Notes: generated from the letters alone by a model not told the origin. A stretch of 64,000 bases of DNA from an uncultured Actinomycetes bacterium (GCA_963776735.1 CAVZNV010000023.1:15080-79079); one strand, 5' to 3'; counted from the stretch's first letter, positions 3,482 through 36,319 are shown. Program-made: numbers and translations.

Positions 3482-4258
3482 GTGTCCGGGTGGCGACTCC
3501 TCGCCCTGGCCACGGTTTCCACCGCCCTTTTCGCTGCGACTCTCGTCGCGCCCGTGGCACGCGCCGACGGCGATCCCGCCAGCGACGTCCTCCTCAGCCA
3601 AGACGTCTTCCTCCCACAAGGCCAAACCACGCCGGCAGAACTCGCCGACCGACTCAACACCCTCACACGCGAAGCCGGCCAAGCAGGCAGCCCGATCAAG
3701 GTCGCGCTCATCGCCGCACCAACCGACCTCGGCTCGGTGAGCACCCTGTACGGCCAGCCGGACAAGTACGCACGCTTCCTCAGCCTCGAAATCGAGTTCG
3801 TCACCAAAGCCCCCGTTCTCGTCGTCATGCCCCAAGGCATCGGCTTCGCACGTGCCGGCGAGTCCATCCCCGGCAACCACCTCGCAGGCGTGACTGTCGG
3901 CAGCGGACCGCAAGCCCTCGCTCAGACCGCGATCGCCGCGATCAGCCGACTCGAGCCAAACCTCAAACCAGCCCCGACGCCAAAGCCCCACGGGAACGTC
4001 CAACCGCCGCCCCCGCCCGTGAGCAACCCGCCGGCTCCGACCCAGGCAGCGCCGGTCCCCGGAAACGGAAGCGCGTTGCACGGCCAGACGCAGCCCTCCG
4101 ACTCATTCGCACAAGTCATCGCAGATCGCTTCGAAACAGGCGCCAGCAAACCGATCGTCTGGGCGTCGCTCGGAATCACACTCGCCCTCGTCGGATTCGG
4201 GGCGTTCGGCGTCTACCTCGCCACCACGTGGAGGACGAGGCGAAGGCCGAGACGATAA
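3482..4258 (+). CDS. secreted hypothetical protein with Pro-rich linker and C-terminal membrane anchor
   Basis: Signal peptide ending VARADG, Pro-rich segment, C-terminal TM helix followed by RTRRRPRR. GC3-rich codons. Confidence 0.6.
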   Translation: MSGWRLLALATVSTALFAATLVAPVARADGDPASDVLLSQDVFLPQGQTTPAELADRLNTLTREAGQAGSPIKVALIAAPTDLGSVSTLYGQPDKYARFLSLEIEFVTKAPVLVVMPQGIGFARAGESIPGNHLAGVTVGSGPQALAQTAIAAISRLEPNLKPAPTPKPHGNVQPPPPPVSNPPAPTQAAPVPGNGSALHGQTQPSDSFAQVIADRFETGASKPIVWASLGITLALVGFGAFGVYLATTWRTRRRPRR

Positions 4259-30748: not shown

Positions 30749-31377
30749 GCCGTCCGCTCGTACAGCTCGACGAGCGCGGCTCTCGGATCGTCGTCGATGT
30801 AGCCGCCGTGCGACAGACAGAGGAGGTCGATCTCGAGGTCGAGCAGGCTCGCCAGGCTGTCACGGGAGATACCGGCACGGAGCCGGGTGTGGTCTTCGGA
30901 GAGCTGGAGCGGGCCCGACGAGTCGCGGCGCGTGACGAGATCGCCGATGAAGAGGATGTTCGGCTCCCCCGGCCGGTAGAGCGAGTAGTGGTCGTACTCG
31001 GGGCCGGGGGTCCGGATCGCCCGGAAGTCCGCCGGTAGGTGGGTGCCTTCGACGTAGTGCTGGTCGGGCTCGGTGAGCAGGCCCCACGACCCGCGAGGCG
31101 CGACGACGCGCGCGCCGTGCTCGAACCTGTAGCGCCACGAGGCGCGCTGGTGGCAGCCTCGGGTGAGCAGCGCATACGACACCGCGGGGAACCGGTCGGC
31201 GGCCGCGTAGGTCATCGGGAGCGGGTCGACGAAGATGACGCCCGCCCGCGTGTAAACCGAGTACGAGTCGCTCTGAGCGCCTCCGATCCGCTCGTCGGAG
31301 ACAGACCAGTGCTCGGTCGCCTCGGCGATCGACCGCGTCCTCTGCGCCCGTTCGGTCGGCTCCTTCACGCCGATCAT
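30745..31377 (-). CDS. MBL-fold-like protein with degenerate metal-binding motif
   Basis: C-terminal ...LLCLSHGGYIDDDP resembles the MBL fold. The position of HxHxDH reads TRGCHQRAS. ATGA overlaps at both ends. Confidence 0.5.
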   Translation of the reverse strand: MIGVKEPTERAQRTRSIAEATEHWSVSDERIGGAQSDSYSVYTRAGVIFVDPLPMTYAAADRFPAVSYALLTRGCHQRASWRYRFEHGARVVAPRGSWGLLTEPDQHYVEGTHLPADFRAIRTPGPEYDHYSLYRPGEPNILFIGDLVTRRDSSGPLQLSEDHTRLRAGISRDSLASLLDLEIDLLCLSHGGYIDDDPRAALVELYERTA

Positions 31378-32372
31378 CCTAGGGGCCGGGCGAGCCGAAA
31401 GAAACCGTCTCTTTCGGACACGGCTCCGGCGAGCTCGAGCTCCGTCAGGGCTGCGGCGAGCGCACCCGGGTCGAGCTCGAGCGCGCGCGCGAGCGCGTCC
31501 GCTGGCAGCGGCTCGGCCTCGAGCCGGGCGAGGACGAGGGCCGCTGTCTCCCCCAGCCCGGCCGCGACGACGACGGGCTGCTCGGGCTCGATGCCGAACG
31601 TCTCGAGCACGTCCGCGATCGCGGTGAGCGGTGTCGCGCCGTTCCGGAGCAGCCGGTTCGAGCCGACCGAGAGCGAGGAGGTGATCTCGCCCGGCACCGC
31701 GAACACCTCGCGCCCCTCCTCGAGCGCGAGGTCGGCGGTGATCAGCGCGCCGCTCCGCTCGCGCGCCTCGACGACGATCGACGCCTGCGCGAGTCCCGCG
31801 ACGATGCGGTTCCGAGCGGGAAAGCGCCACGGAGCCGGCTCGACACCGGGCGCGTATTCCGACACCACCAGGCCGCGCTCCCCGATCCGGGCGGCGAGCT
31901 CCGCGTGCGCCGCGGGGTAGTCGCGGTCGACGCCGCAACCGAGGACTGCGACGGTCAGCCCTCCCGCGTCGAGCGCGCCCCGGTGGGCATGGCCGTCGAC
32001 GCCGCGCGCGAGGCCGCTGACGACGACGAGCCCGGCGGCGGCGAGTTCGCGGCCGAGCATCCGCGCGACGTCGGCGCCGTAGGCGGAGCAGCTGCGGGCA
32101 CCCACGACGGCGACCGAGGGACGATCGAGCATCGCGAGCTCGCCCCGCCCGCGGACGAAGAGGCCTGCCGGCGCGTCGAAGATCGCGGCCAGCGCCGACG
32201 GGAACTCCCTCGCCGAGCGCGGCAGCCAGCGCAGGCCGCGTTGCTCGAGGCCGGCAAGGTACGCGCGCTCGTCGAACTCGCGCCGGAAGCGCGCGAAGCG
32301 ATCGCTCCGTGGAGCCTCGAGCACGTGCGAGTCCGTGTGCGCGGCGAACGCGGCGAGGGCGAGCTCGCTCAC
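31374..32372 (-). CDS. dprA: DNA-processing protein DprA
   Basis: Rossmann-like DprA core (VVGARSCSAYG, VVSGLARGVDGHAHRGAL, RNRIVAGL, SGALITADLALEEGREVFAVPG). GTGA overlap with the comM 3' fragment. Confidence 0.85.
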   Translation of the reverse strand: MSELALAAFAAHTDSHVLEAPRSDRFARFRREFDERAYLAGLEQRGLRWLPRSAREFPSALAAIFDAPAGLFVRGRGELAMLDRPSVAVVGARSCSAYGADVARMLGRELAAAGLVVVSGLARGVDGHAHRGALDAGGLTVAVLGCGVDRDYPAAHAELAARIGERGLVVSEYAPGVEPAPWRFPARNRIVAGLAQASIVVEARERSGALITADLALEEGREVFAVPGEITSSLSVGSNRLLRNGATPLTAIADVLETFGIEPEQPVVVAAGLGETAALVLARLEAEPLPADALARALELDPGALAAALTELELAGAVSERDGFFRLARPLG

Positions 32373-32953
32373 GCGGACTGGAGCTCCGTCGGAGTGCGGT
32401 ACGAGAGCGCTTCCGAGACGTGTTCGGGCAGGACGTCCGCCGTCCCGGCCAGGGCCGCGATCGTCTGGGCGGTGCGGGCGACTCGGGCACGCCCGCGGCC
32501 GGAGAGAGGAAGCCGCTCGACCGCGCGCGTGAGCAGCTCGTCGGCCTCGGCCGTGCGCAGAGGCAACTTGCCGCGGAGCCGCTCACGCGCTGCGCAGACG
32601 CGCTCGCGTACCGGCGCGGAGGCTTCGGACGGCCCGGCTGCGAGCTCGGCCCCGCGCGGACGCGGCACGGTGACGACGAGGTCGAAGCGGTCGAGCAGAG
32701 CGCGCGAGAGCTTGTTCCGGAAGGCGGCGAGCCGCTGCGGCGAGCATGCGCACTCGGCGGCCGGATCGCCGCGCGCCCCGCAGGGGCACAGGTTCATCGT
32801 CGCAACGAGCTGGAACCGCGCCGGGTACAGCGCCTGGCCGGCGGCCCGCGCGACGCTGACGATGCCGTCCTCCAGCGGTTGCCGCAGCGACTCCAGCGCC
32901 GGCCGCATGAACTCGGGCAGTTCGTCGAGCAACAGGACGCCGCGGTGGGCCAG
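32369..32953 (-). pseudogene. comM: comM (YifB/Mg-chelatase-like ATPase), 3' fragment
   Basis: Encodes LAHRGVLLLDELPEF...LRQPLEDG...NLCPCG...RFDL (Walker B onward). An in-frame TGA at 32957-32959 lies just upstream. Confidence 0.85.
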
Positions 32954-32974
32954 CGTTCAGGAATGTCGCTTGAG
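32946..32974 (-). repeat. module-tail repeat, copy 1 (abuts comM 3' fragment)
   Basis: TGGGCCAGCGTTCAGGAATGTCGCTTGAG, 25/29 identical to 33415-33443. Confidence 0.8.
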
Positions 32975-32996
32975 ACTCGTGAGGTGTCGTAGGCGC

Positions 32997-33344
32997 TCAA
33001 AGGACGGGGCAATCGGTGAGCGACGAGACTTTCAGCGTGTTGCCGCCTACACGGTCGCCGATACCGAGCGTGAGGCAACCAAGCCGATCGCCGTTCCCGT
33101 TTGTGACGAGCCACCAGCTCGTCCCGTCTCCGTAGTCGTGGGCGGTCACGGAGACGCCGGGCGGCAGGTACTTGACGTACCGAAACCGGTCGCACGCTGA
33201 CGTGCGGCAATCGCGAACGACAACCGCGGTCGTTGTGTCGTTCCGCAGCGCTATCGTCCACGTCCCGTCCTCCCGGTTCAAATCACAGCCAGCGGCCGCC
33301 CAAACGAGAGCAAGCAAGGCCACACACCCGGTGATCGCGCGCAT
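32997..33344 (-). CDS. small lipoprotein, unknown function (cargo of comM insert, module 1)
   Basis: MRAITGCVALLALVWAAAGC lipobox, Cys-rich 115 aa, same strand as comM. Confidence 0.6.
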   Translation of the reverse strand: MRAITGCVALLALVWAAAGCDLNREDGTWTIALRNDTTTAVVVRDCRTSACDRFRYVKYLPPGVSVTAHDYGDGTSWWLVTNGNGDRLGCLTLGIGDRVGGNTLKVSSLTDCPVL

Positions 33345-33414
33345 GGGTTAGTTGTACGCCACCTCGCTAGTCAGCGCATCGCCAGAACAGGCGATCAGGC
33401 GGGAAGGGTCTCGG

Positions 33415-33443
33415 ATGGGCCAGCGTGCGGGAATGTCCCTTGA
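33415..33443 (-). repeat. module-tail repeat, copy 2 (between the two modules)
   Basis: TGGGCCAGCGTGCGGGAATGTCCCTTGAA. It sits 31 nt past the stop of the 240-aa ORF, in the same relative position as copy 1. Confidence 0.8.
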
Positions 33444-33473
33444 AGTAGTCCGCTGTCCGACCGGGGCGTGCTT

Positions 33474-34196
33474 CTAGCCGCCAGCAGCCCAGCCTTGGAA
33501 GGGTGAGAGCGAGCGTCCCGGCGGATCGAGAGTGCCTGCGGTGAAGTTCCAGTAGCCGGGGCCAAACATCACCCGACGCACGATGATCCGCTGGGCGCGT
33601 GCCCTTGCCCATTCGAGGGCCTCTGACAAGCGGACGCCGTCAACTTGCTCGATCACCGTCGCGTCGAGTTCGGTGAACTTCTCGACTTGTTGATGCGGGT
33701 TGTACTCGAGCAGTTGCCCCGAGTACATGCGCGTGCCGATCCGACGCTCCGGCGTCCACTGCTCTGTGACGTGGACGTAGCCTCCGTAGCGGCGCTCAGT
33801 CTCCGGCTCGCGCTGTCCGACTGTCGCGATGTGTGTCGGCCAGCGAGGGATGTCCGCCGTCTCGTCGCAGAGTTCCCCGGCCTCAAACTGCTGTTCGGGT
33901 TCCTCGTCGTCGTCTGCGTGTTTATCCGTGATTACGTTCACGTAGACGTAGGGGGCACGCTGACGACCCCACGTGATCGCGTCTCCGACGTCATCGAAGT
34001 ACGGCCCGGTGATGTCGGATCGCCCCTCGGCGTCGGCCACGAGCCAATAAGTGCCGAACTTCCCTTCACTGGCTTCGTAGGCGAACTCGTACGCCGATTC
34101 GCTTTCGACGCGTGCCAGACCACTGACCAACCGATACCCCTCGGCGATGACAACAAGGCGCTCGCCCATCGACCCGAAACCATAGAGCGAGGGCAA
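33474..34196 (-). CDS. acidic hypothetical protein (cargo of comM insert, module 2)
   Basis: 240-codon ORF (TTG 34196; alternative ATG 34169), GC3-rich, no signal peptide, no family recognised. Possible internal two-domain duplication. Confidence 0.55.
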   Translation of the reverse strand: MPSLYGFGSMGERLVVIAEGYRLVSGLARVESESAYEFAYEASEGKFGTYWLVADAEGRSDITGPYFDDVGDAITWGRQRAPYVYVNVITDKHADDDEEPEQQFEAGELCDETADIPRWPTHIATVGQREPETERRYGGYVHVTEQWTPERRIGTRMYSGQLLEYNPHQQVEKFTELDATVIEQVDGVRLSEALEWARARAQRIIVRRVMFGPGYWNFTAGTLDPPGRSLSPFQGWAAGG

Positions 34197-34242
34197 CGGT
34201 CAGTAGTCGTGGTTCCGCCTGATCGCGCCAAGTTCCTGGCGA

Positions 34243-35142
34243 CTACGCCATGGCCTGCGCGAGGCTCGCCTCGCCCGGCCTCGGCCCGGGGCCACCACCG
34301 ACGATCGCCGCCGTCGAGGCAGAGTGGTGCGGCGCTCGAAACGGCGGCTCGTCGATCAGCGGTCGTCCCGGCTGGAGCGTGCCGGCAACGGAGTGGATGC
34401 GCGTCACCTCCAGCGCTTCGTCCGACGCGAGCGGCGGCAGGATCCCCGGCAATCGGCGGGCGAGCATCGTCTTCCCCGTCCCCGGCGGCCCGGCGAACAG
34501 CAGGTTGTGCGATCCGGCGGCTGCGATCTCGAGCGCTCGGCGGGCGCGTTCCTGACCACGGACGTCGGCAAGGTCGGGATGGACGCGGCGCGGCCCGTTG
34601 CCGTTCGCGGGCGCCGAGTACGGCGGGGGTTCGCCCTCGCCGCGCAGATAGGCGACCGCCTCGGCAAGGTGCCGCAGAGGCACTGCGTCGACGCCGGCCA
34701 GCTCGGCCTCCGGGGTCGACTCGGCGGCGCAGAGGAGCCGCGTGAAACCGGCTCGTCGCGCGCCTTCGGCAGCCGCGAGGACGCCGCCGACGGGCCGGAT
34801 GCGCCCGTCGAGCGCAAGCTCGCCGAGCGCCGCGTGCCCCGCCAGCGCCGTCGCCGGGATCTGCCGCGAGGCGGCGAGAATCGCAAGGGCGATCGGCAGG
34901 TCGAAGCCCGAGCCCTCCTTCCGCAGCCCGGCCGGAGCGAGGTTGACGGTGATCCGCCGAACCGGCCACTCGAGCTCGGCCGACGCGATGCCGACGCGGA
35001 CGCGCTCCTTCGCCTCCTGGCAGGCGCGGTCGGCAAGCCCGACAATCGCGAACCCGGGGACGCCGAGCTGGAGGTGCGCCTCGACCTCGACGCGGCGCGC
35101 CTCGAGGCCGACGAGCGCATGCGTGACCGTCCGCGCAAGCAC
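34243..35142 (-). pseudogene. comM: comM (YifB/Mg-chelatase-like ATPase), 5' fragment
   Basis: Lon-protease-like N-domain plus AAA+ Walker A (LLFAGPPGTGKTMLA), ending ...RPGEASLA. It then reads QAMA-stop into the insert. Confidence 0.85.
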
Positions 35143-35191
35143 GGGTCGACCGTAGCCCGGACTTCGTGACGTGTCTGTGCCGGTTTTGCGC

Positions 35192-36319
35192 CTATTCGGG
35201 CACGGCGACGAGCACGTCCTCGAAGTACTCGCCGGCCCGGCGACCGGTACGGCGGTTCACGTGCCTCCGCAGCCGTCCGCGGAGCTTCAGCCCGGCCTGC
35301 GACAGGATCCCCGGATAGAGCTCGCGGCGGTCGTTGACGACGATCAGCAGCGGCGCGCCCGGGTGGAGCGCGTCTGCGGCACGGCGCAGTGTCGCGGCGA
35401 TTCCGTCGCAGTAAGCCGCCAGCGACGCCTTGCTCGTCCCGCCGGCAGCAGCGCCGATCTCGTGCTCGCGCCGGTCGTCCAGGTCGAGTAGCTCGTAGGC
35501 GTAGCGGTGCTGCTCGTGGTAGTCGATCAGACCCGGATAGGGCGGCGAGGTGATGACCGCGTCGAAGCGGCCGTCCCAGTCGAGCTCGCGCGAGTCGCCG
35601 TGCCGGACGAGTGCCTCCCGACCTCGGGCGCGCACGCGCGCGAACGCCTTGATCCGTGCCAGCGTGTCGAGCGCGTAGCGGCTGAGGAAGTGGGAGGCGT
35701 GGTCGACGGGCCGGCACTCGCGCCGGTGCTTGTGGCACCAGTACGGCTCGAGCTGCGGCGTCCGCGGGAAGTCGAGGTCGAAGTGTGTGGTCAGCCGGGC
35801 CGACCGCGCGGCGCGCGCGAGCACGACGCGCATGACGTCGGCGTGCTCGTACTCCTCGAGCAGCGTCCGCCAGCAGAGCAGGTCGGCGGCCGCCTGCGGA
35901 GCGAACCACTGTCCGACGTAACCGTGTCCGAGGGACAGTCCCTCGGACGTGTCCGGACCGGACGCGATGCGCCGGACTGCGTCGCGCAGCTCCTTCTCGA
36001 GGACGAACTCGTTGTACCGAGCAGTCTTGACCCGCATGAGCAGGCAGTTGAACGCAGCCAGGTCGGCGCCGGCCGCGTCATGACCGGACTCGAGCGCCTG
36101 CACGAGCGTCGTCCCCGAGCCGGCGAACGGGTCGAGGGCGCTCCCGCCGGGCGCGACGTACCGGTCGAGCAGCACCTCGACGAGCTGCGGAATGAACTTG
36201 CCCAGGTACGGATGGAGCCGGTGAACGTGCTTTGTCCGCTCCCGCTCCGGTAGCTGCCCCTCCGACCACGACAGGTCGAGGTCGATCTTCGCGTAGAGCG
36301 CGCTTTGAGTGTGCGCCAT
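35192..36319 (-). CDS. site-specific DNA methyltransferase (N4/N6 amino-MTase; motif I precedes SPPY)
   Basis: HPYLGKFIPQLV...LDPFAGSGTTLVQA (AdoMet motif I) lies N-terminal and DAVITSPPYPG (motif IV) C-terminal. No adjacent endonuclease ORF. Confidence 0.85.
   Translation of the reverse strand: MAHTQSALYAKIDLDLSWSEGQLPERERTKHVHRLHPYLGKFIPQLVEVLLDRYVAPGGSALDPFAGSGTTLVQALESGHDAAGADLAAFNCLLMRVKTARYNEFVLEKELRDAVRRIASGPDTSEGLSLGHGYVGQWFAPQAAADLLCWRTLLEEYEHADVMRVVLARAARSARLTTHFDLDFPRTPQLEPYWCHKHRRECRPVDHASHFLSRYALDTLARIKAFARVRARGREALVRHGDSRELDWDGRFDAVITSPPYPGLIDYHEQHRYAYELLDLDDRREHEIGAAAGGTSKASLAAYCDGIAATLRRAADALHPGAPLLIVVNDRRELYPGILSQAGLKLRGRLRRHVNRRTGRRAGEYFEDVLVAVPE

Follow-up and report, generated by a model that had tools for sequence, protein, structure and literature searches.

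Two gene cassettes splitting comM in an uncultured Actinomycetes bacterium point to integron-like arrays probably run by a large serine recombinase

What kind of element has cut comM in two, and how might it have arrived there, are the questions raised by a 64,000-nucleotide stretch of DNA from an uncultured Actinomycetes bacterium (GCA_963776735.1, CAVZNV010000023.1:15080-79079), hereafter the window, in whose coordinates positions are given. An insert of 1308 bp (32948-34255), surrounded by DNA of ~70% G+C, splits this minus-strand gene for a yifB-type, Mg-chelatase-like AAA ATPase into an N-terminal part (34258-35142; open reading frame (ORF) and Pfam evidence for ChlI and the first half of the Mg_chelatase domain, profile positions 1-106) and a C-terminal part (32369-32945; Mg_chelatase profile positions 111-204 and Mg_chelatase_C). 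The Pfam Mg_chelatase profile is interrupted between positions 106 and 111, and in-silico deletion of 32948-34257 (1310 bp, the insert plus one TG) rejoins the two parts in frame into an uninterrupted ComM ORF of 487 aa. We interpret the insert, with a probability of roughly three in four, as a pair of gene cassettes, neither of them autonomous, that belong to an array system operated by a large serine recombinase (LSR).

To establish where the insert begins and ends, one can turn to relatives, in which intact ComM proteins 93-95% identical to the rejoined ComM are present. The related locus L096 has an intact comM (93% amino-acid identity) and the same order of M48 peptidase, DNA methyltransferase, comM and dprA as the window. 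The left flank of the window aligns through position 3579 of L096rc and the right flank aligns from position 3578, and because the left alignment ends and the right alignment starts at one L096 TG, the flanks overlap by exactly 2 bp. The first-pass annotation of this DNA had proposed just such a TG-only overlap, with no longer duplication, and the L096 empty site, the kind of sequence in which that annotation thought a longer duplication might come to light, agrees with the proposal and reveals none.

Read on the plus strand, on which all arm coordinates are given, three junctions carry this TG. The left junction dinucleotide (32946-32947), which the sequence, the L096 alignment and the TG of related junctions all identify as the putative crossover, reads GCCGCGG-TG-GGCCAGCGTTCAGGAATGTCGCTTGA, an inter-cassette TG (33416-33417) reads TCTCGGA-TG-GGCCAGCGTGCGGGAATGTCCCTTGA, and the right junction (34256-34257, again from sequence and the L096 alignment) reads CCATGGCC-TG-CGCGAGGCT; the earlier readings of both outer junctions and of an inter-module TCGGA-TG are confirmed. 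A 26-bp arm, GGCCAGCGT(T/G)C(A/G)GGAATGTC(G/C)CTTGA, starts at 32948 and again at 33418 with a TG before both copies, and the direct repeat amounts to 28 nt that are 89% identical between copies. This motif matches the window twice and shuffled sequences not at all, and a position weight matrix (PWM) of the arm has the two cassette arms as its only matches in 64 kb.

Comparison with related genomes shows the anatomy of the sites and gave the arms their names. Outward from the TG, the strong arm that begins each cassette reads S-GCCAGCGT-KCGGG-AATGTCNCTTGA, forming a half-site of 26 bp in which S-GCCAGCGT is followed after 5-6 nt by GAATGTCNCTTGA. The arm that ends each cassette, G-GCGAGcGt-cc-tctCgCc..., is a weaker half-site of ~21 bp with the same proximal GCSAGYGT block. 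The proximal blocks of the two arms coincide, and the distal block of the weak arm lies 5 bp closer to the centre: against the strong arm, 244 cassette weak arms score 6.7 bits at a 5-bp shift and no more than 1.2 bits at any other, 119 independent metagenome junctions (matches of a scan for free attP sites, reused as an independent set of weak arms) score 5.2 bits with the next best shift at 2.3, and eight arms adjacent to LSR genes score 10.4 bits with all other shifts below -2.9. Rutherford et al. (2013) described an LSR attP half-site of 25 bp and an attB in which the zinc-ribbon-domain motif lies 5 bp nearer the centre, attP bp 16-24 corresponding to attB bp 11-19 (PMC3783163). Because the 5-bp shift fits this rule, the strong arm is named P-type here and the weak one B-type, which makes the junctions within arrays B-TG-P' and attL-like. 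In these comparisons the sites match those of LSRs in having a common 2-bp central dinucleotide, inverted half-sites symmetric about it, and P and B types whose distal motifs are offset by 5 bp.

In these terms cassette 1 begins with a P'-type arm, GGCCAGCGTTCAGGAATGTCGCTTGA (32948-32973; motif search, PWM score 46.9), carries on the minus strand a called ORF of 115 aa with a lipoprotein-like N-terminus (…AAAGC; 32997-33344; no family match) and ends in a B-type arm that reads TCCGAGACCCTTCCCGCCTGA outward (33395-33415; B-arm PWM 7.3). One TG, common to both cassettes and without duplication, leads into cassette 2, which has its own P'-type arm, GGCCAGCGTGCGGGAATGTCCCTTGA (33418-33443; motif search, PWM score 50.1), a minus-strand orphan ORF of 231 aa (33474-34169; a protein search matched only itself) and a closing B-type arm, outward GGCCATGGCGTAGTCGCCAGG (34235-34255; B-arm PWM 6.6). 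On the strand of the ORF itself, the reverse complement of the 26-bp arm lies 3' of each cargo ORF. The comM target contributes a B arm on the left (32925-32945), an attB-like half-site reading outward from the TG on the opposite strand (B-arm PWM 6.8, z = 3.1), and a B' arm on the right (34258-34278; 8.9, z = 3.7). The window thus holds two attL-like junctions, B(comM)-TG-P'1 at 32925-32973 and B1-TG-P'2 at 33395-33443, and one attB-like junction, B2-TG-B'(comM) at 34235-34278, in which the B arm of cassette 2 faces the B' arm of comM.

An in-silico circle of the whole insert had been presented as forming a dyad of TGGCC and GGCCA around the central TG, and these arms are present as claimed, although 5-bp arms alone are weak evidence in 70% G+C DNA. 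Across 246 related junctions, T(-3) is conserved in 97% and G(-2) in 89%, both lying outside the search pattern, and the flanking arms are symmetric about the TG. The junction of such a circle would consist of a B-type arm, TG and a P-type arm, which is attL-like and not a true attP.

Related genomes also show where cassettes part from their neighbours. Twenty-eight pairs of junctions from different loci have the same right-hand cassette (mostly ≥90% identity) next to unrelated left sequence, with similarity stopping at TG(G/C), and rare arm variants (e.g. CCGAGTG.., GTTAGGG, ..GAATGACGCC) travel together with the right-hand cassette. Several pairs represent the converse case, in which the left cassette is common through ...CGCC-TG and divergence sets in from the first bases of the arm. 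These alignments place the exchange at or immediately beside the TG and show cassettes shuffling between neighbours, and the breakpoints together with the co-travelling arm variants rule out an exchange inside the 28-mer.

The arm is widespread and is mostly found in arrays. When one genome per species was scanned, it turned up in 89 stretches, nearly all of them from Gaiellaceae, Thermoleophilia, Solirubrobacterales or genomes labelled only Actinomycetes or Actinomycetota; the others were from a small number of Acidimicrobiia and from a single contig binned as Chloroflexia. When arm copies with ≤6 mismatches were counted, several copies were present in 64 of 90 sources, in direct orientation throughout within an array and typically spaced 280-1800 bp apart, with examples reaching 11 copies in 8 kb (L003) and 17 copies (the contiguous L084 and L002); the median cassette length is 715 bp (n=209). 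The logo of the 246 junctions reads ..CTCGCC-TG-GGCCAG.., with one base between the TG and GCSAG on both sides and a weaker ..AC.CTCGCC consensus left of the TG. TG is the central dinucleotide in 263 of 308 related junctions, and TC takes its place at 14 of the 15 sites of one contig. Arrays of this TC kind, in which the arm is otherwise identical, occur in L003 and L078 (CAVYGJ010000006.1, binned as Chloroflexia) and also in L076, which suggests an orthogonal lineage of sites. Among 140 cassette ORFs there were six GNAT acetyltransferases, five cupins, four methyltransferases, three glyoxalase/bleomycin-resistance proteins and two Arr (Arr-ms) rifampin ADP-ribosyltransferases (E = 7.5e-50). 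Scanning viral contigs for the arm gave one uninformative match, so the system does not look phage-borne.

We then asked which enzyme might act on these sites. Screening the ORFs of all loci brought out an LSR of 467 aa in L048, together with a copy in L069 that is frameshifted and a partial one in L021. The conserved family to which these point, whose members are ~463 aa long and combine Resolvase, Recombinase and Zn_ribbon_recom domains, has 2433 relatives below 1e-30, the cultured Gaiella occulta being among their hosts. Its kinship with XisF, CcrA/B, the TP901-1 integrase and TnpX is no more than distant, and in the PDB the catalytic domain of TnpX is matched weakly; NCBIfam models for CcrA/B/C reach 28-55 bits against cut-offs of 700-900, and a coiled-coil-like segment can be read from the sequence behind the zinc ribbon.

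Eight LSR loci came with DNA (L048, L069, L090, L091, L092, L094, L098 and L099), and in all eight the LSR gene adjoins an att site, [TCAGGCGWRAGGACGCTSGCG]-CA-[Y-GCCAGTGT....AATGT...], standing immediately before its start codon. This B-type arm, CA and P-type arm are P arm, TG and B' arm on the cassette strand, and hence attR-like. Where genes had been called, a convergent Rep gene follows downstream of the LSR (PF23343 at 50.8 bits, cut-off 27.8), and in seven of the eight loci P'-type sites follow on the opposite strand in 2 to at least 11 copies, while the region on the far side of the LSR has none; in the remaining locus, L090 of G. occulta, the contig stops short of where an array could appear. 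The LSR-Rep unit, 2.3-4.5 kb long, is always at the B' end of its array with an attR-like outer junction (P-TG-B'), and since it alone has P-type arms at both of its ends it would carry a true attP if circular. The chromosomal genes flanking the units vary (secA, dsbA, a short-chain dehydrogenase, a GntR regulator, an HNH gene). These related genomes, with their TG breakpoints, 5-bp shift and LSR at array ends, lend support to the first-pass suggestion that the modules are non-autonomous substrates of a serine recombinase acting in trans, and we infer that it is this LSR that catalyzes the exchange.

Three further observations concern the LSR gene and its surroundings. The P arm upstream of it (L090:9975-10003, L098:9975-10003, L048:393-420) contains a -10-like hexamer, TAATGT or TAAATG, that ends 7-9 nt before the start codon, so a leaderless transcript may encode the LSR, whose binding to its own att site could regulate it. 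The LSR-family fragment of L021 (1067-1744) has a P' site on either side within an array, which would fit a decayed LSR unit covered over by insertions that came later. In the gene list of JGI 3300056388, an LSR-Rep pair stands beside a TraG/TrwB-like coupling protein, TrbL and a VirB4-like ATPase of type IV secretion, which hints that some platforms ride on or beside a conjugative element.

Why comM, then, should have been the target was evaluated with a B-arm PWM trained solely on cassettes from other genomes (median training score 4.4). On the reconstructed empty window the comM site ranks 1 of 62,646 positions by two-arm score (z = 4.7), with TG at its centre, and the comM sequence coding for ...EASLAHRGVLLLDE... 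is a good B-TG-B' site of attB-like type. Cutting of comM at the same TG recurs in a second genome (L088, contig CAVRPZ010000003.1; C-terminal part of ComM 72% identical). That comM is the best attB-like site in the window, and that the 64 kb hold no recombinase gene, adds to the case for a serine recombinase supplied in trans. The same kind of site recurs at arrays that lack an LSR: of those with an end inside the locus, eight of 20 have a strong B-TG-B' site 350-2700 bp past the last P' site, a score reached by 0 of 19 control flanks from the other array side (p = 0.003). The B' arm at such ends (e.g. GGACAGCGTCCTCTCGCCTGA) is the same as the B' arm beside the LSR elsewhere, and these ends look like unoccupied docking sites.

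Taken together, these features can be arranged into a history in which strand exchange would occur at the 2-bp TG between half-sites. A circle of the LSR-Rep unit and cassettes would have integrated into comM by attP x attB recombination, and the LSR unit would later have been excised via an internal attL-type junction in place of the outermost one. Such an exit would have stranded cassettes 1 and 2 in comM and left the attB-type junction at 34235-34278 open to the next docking, and the three junctions of the window are, by their arms, exactly the end state to be expected from it. More generally, the LSR-Rep unit, with or without neighboring cassettes, would circularize by attL x attR recombination, any attL-type junction being usable, would possibly replicate through Rep, and would integrate into B-TG-B' sites by attP x attB. 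Extended to the Gaiellales/Thermoleophilia and some neighboring lineages, this would make the system an LSR counterpart of the integron, in which an LSR-Rep replicon docks at the conserved B' end of an array and exits via attR and any attL-type junction, reshuffling single-gene cassettes (Arr, GNAT and glyoxalase/bleomycin-resistance genes included) between genomes; we regard this wider proposal as an even bet. The predicted products are a restored comM junction, ...GACGCCGCGGTGCGCGAGGCTCG..., and circle junctions for the whole insert, ...ACGCCATGGCCTGGGCCAGCGTTCAGG..., for cassette 1, ...GGTCTCGGATGGGCCAGCGTTCAGG..., and for cassette 2, ...ACGCCATGGCCTGGGCCAGCGTGCGGG....

Several observations weigh against reading the insert as cassettes of an LSR-run array. 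The ORF screen of the window revealed no LSR gene within its 64 kb, no recombination products (restored comM or circles) were observed, and no occupied/empty pair for the LSR-Rep unit was found among the related loci. Neither was a free P-TG-P' attP junction, with 0 P-type among 125 metagenome matches, in a scan that was insufficiently selective because its pattern also matches ordinary cassette junctions. To recombine attL with attR, canonical LSRs require a directionality factor, for which no candidate emerged, the small ORFs of the LSR unit having no family match. The distal part of the cassette B arms is weakly conserved, and 12 of the 20 LSR-less arrays have no clear B-TG-B' end. Finally, the second genome with a cut comM, L088, has a B'-like arm abutting comM (CGCGCCGTCCGCTCC...) and not a P'-like one, which the simple model does not predict. 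In that locus (L088:3400-5120) the first P' site lies 730 bp further in and the N-terminal half of comM is absent from the 5 kb upstream, and an LSR acting on two attB-type sites might have rearranged the DNA there.

Among the other explanations, the closest keeps the LSR and the same sites and lets each cassette move alone as a small, integron-like circle: two B-TG-P' junctions would recombine, the circle would re-insert at any B-TG-P' or B-TG-B', and the LSR unit need not travel along. Single cassettes are indeed seen with differing neighbors on both sides, the array junctions are all of one type, which would make the reaction symmetric, and no lost LSR unit is required for the window insert; the Ccr recombinases of staphylococcal cassette chromosome (SCC) elements, moreover, are promiscuous in site pairing. 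What makes us consider this version unlikely is that the LSR unit always sits at the B' array end with P arms at both ends, as canonical attP x attB docking predicts, and that LSR-less arrays end in B-TG-B'. In characterized LSRs, furthermore, a coiled-coil motif blocks every pairing except attP x attB and, where a directionality factor is present, attL x attR (PMC3783163), and this LSR has a coiled-coil-like segment of its own. A non-autonomous DDE-type transposon, akin to miniature inverted-repeat transposable elements or mobile insertion cassettes, with short terminal inverted repeats and a 2-bp TG target duplication, would account for the TG on both sides of the insert and for the short inverted repeat at its ends (GGCCA/TGGCC, consensus GGCSAG). 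It is nonetheless very improbable, as neighboring cassettes have one TG in common instead of a duplication apiece, the ends are strongly asymmetric (26 bp against ~10-21 bp) with a 5-bp register shift, the target is a specific 44-bp dyad ranking first in the window, and ~700 kb of array loci contain no recurrent transposase family.

Two further readings involve tyrosine recombinases. The first-pass annotation had offered an 11-6-11 Xer-type site as its alternative. Taken as XerC/D recombination within the 28-mer, in the manner of integrative mobile elements exploiting Xer (IMEX) or pdif modules, it would suit both the 28-nt repeat length and the variability of arm positions 8-10, the highest in an otherwise conserved 26 bp. 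We find it hardly credible: homology between alternative neighbors stops at the TG, outside the 28-mer, and variants on either side of the hexamer co-segregate with the right cassette, while the proposed 11-bp arms, as read from the sequence, are not inverted repeats of one another, all copies are direct and do not alternate as in pdif modules, and the target is comM and not a dif site. Classical integron cassettes, or an integrase-less attC cluster, moved by IntI on folded single-stranded attC, would explain arrays of small, mostly single-gene cassettes with integron-like cargo (GNAT, glyoxalase/bleomycin-resistance, Arr, toxin-antitoxin-like pairs), but this reading too has next to nothing left to it once the sites are considered, as the junction logo contains no RYYYAAC or GTTRRRY boxes, the junctions fold as single strands no better than shuffled sequence (z from -1.3 to +1.2), and a phmmer search of all ORFs of the 89 loci and the window, using IntI1 and XerD queries, gave only one unrelated tyrosine-recombinase fragment in ~700 kb of array loci. 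That fragment, a C-terminal piece accompanied by a tRNA-like stretch ~200 bp from a single P' arm (L007:3667-4290), is probably a remnant of an unrelated integrative element. As separate candidates, a REP/RAYT or IS200/IS605-type element was rejected, there being no conserved hairpin or recurrent HUH gene, and so was the 28-mer as an attC hairpin, on its folding z-scores.

If the insert does belong to an LSR-run cassette array, its nearest parallels lie in several better known systems. In SCC and SCCmec, the CcrAB/CcrC LSRs insert elements at a site within a conserved gene of the chromosome and restore an attB-like site at one end, and tandem composite arrays include recombinase-less members dependent on a recombinase in trans. 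The comM-type system would share LSR integration into such a gene, and it shares the attB-like site at one end and tandem arrays with non-autonomous members; it differs in that its LSR is not of the Ccr family and co-travels with a Rep gene, its cassettes are tiny (median 715 bp, one gene), stand at least 17 in a row and have a full 26-bp P-type half-site each, and its Thermoleophilia hosts have targets in comM and various intergenic sites, not in rlmH (orfX). The likeness to integrons extends to one-gene head-to-tail cassettes, a recombination site split between cassette ends, a recombinase gene at one array end beside the docking site, similar cargo (Arr, GNAT) and stray cassettes at secondary sites. 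The enzyme here, however, is a serine and not a tyrosine recombinase, the sites are double-stranded dyads crossed over at 2 bp where integrons use folded single-stranded attC, sequence is conserved rather than structure, and the gene for the recombinase is part of a mobile unit that has an attP of its own.

The logic inferred here is also that of accretion and cis-mobilization in ICESt1/ICESt3 and their cis-mobilizable elements (CIMEs), where tandem elements have att sites in common and the autonomous element excises with or without its non-autonomous neighbors via alternative att sites, although tyrosine integrases and a few large elements are involved there and an LSR with long arrays of single-gene cassettes here. 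LSR prophages and elements that interrupt developmental or competence genes include Listeria A118/phi10403S in comK, Bacillus SPbeta in spsM and the skin element in sigK, and the comM insert resembles them in an LSR att site inside a coding sequence, a 2-bp crossover and a precise excision that would restore the gene; like comK, comM is a competence gene. Unlike those elements, however, this insert is 1.3 kb of cargo with no recombinase, and it may be stranded rather than a switch, because under canonical rules it has no attR partner. Tn4451 and Tn5397, moved by the LSRs TnpX and TndX, are flanked by a conserved dinucleotide, GA, and excise as circles; they share with the present system an LSR-driven element between conserved dinucleotides, and they differ in being single autonomous transposons with relaxed target choice and without arrays or distinct P and B arms. 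In the literature we found no description of serine-recombinase cassette arrays or of counterparts in Gaiellales/Thermoleophilia, in a search that left most subscription journals uncovered and in which absence is no proof, and the system is apparently undescribed.

If this holds, integron-like cassette arrays would have been reached independently, via an LSR and double-stranded attP/attB half-sites and not via a tyrosine recombinase and folded attC, and canonical LSR directionality rules would underlie a general gene-capture platform. The cassette system is abundant in Gaiellales, a dominant yet poorly studied group of soil Actinomycetota, relatives of its LSR family number in the thousands in soil metagenomes, and adaptive cargo, rifampin ADP-ribosyltransferase genes included, is carried. 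It also raises the question of how, with one attR and many attL sites, the pairing partner is chosen. For engineering, where LSRs are already in use on genomes (PMC3783163), it would supply a naturally occurring series of LSRs and their sites, all related, in one lineage of which the central dinucleotide is altered.

For the bacterium itself, judging from the reading frame, comM is inactivated unless the insert is removed. The gene downstream in the same operon is dprA (31374-32372, minus strand; ORF call, with the gene at the equivalent position in L096 called DNA_processg_A and gene order identical), and its expression is probably affected by the insert. With comM inactivated and dprA expression probably affected, natural transformation would be impaired.

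Among the loci compared, the cargo of the two window cassettes is unique. Neither ORF has a family match in Pfam or NCBIfam, the cassette 2 protein found only itself among 5.8 billion proteins, and comparing both cassettes with all related loci (tblastn and blastn) left only the 26-bp arm in common; a search of 32000-35500 against Rfam gave no RNA family match. Cassettes elsewhere (loci L002-L099) further carry SnoaL-like proteins and ABM monooxygenases, one in L091 carries an Imm53 immunity protein, and one in L094 (16061-16512) is filled by two small overlapping ORFs (76 and 73 aa) in a toxin-antitoxin-like arrangement. Of the ORF clusters near the arm, the largest, at ~25 loci, is made up of large proteins with adenylate/guanylate-cyclase domains, in some cases joined to ATPase and regulator parts; in the two loci that were checked (L043:4647-7772 and L007:4473-5938) the 3' end of the gene lies just past a P' arm, which would suit either cassettes of very large size or a gene placed first in its array. 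Directly upstream of comM, on the minus strand at 35192-36319, is an N6/N4 DNA methyltransferase-like gene, and as it is equally placed in L096 it belongs to the conserved neighborhood and not to the insert.

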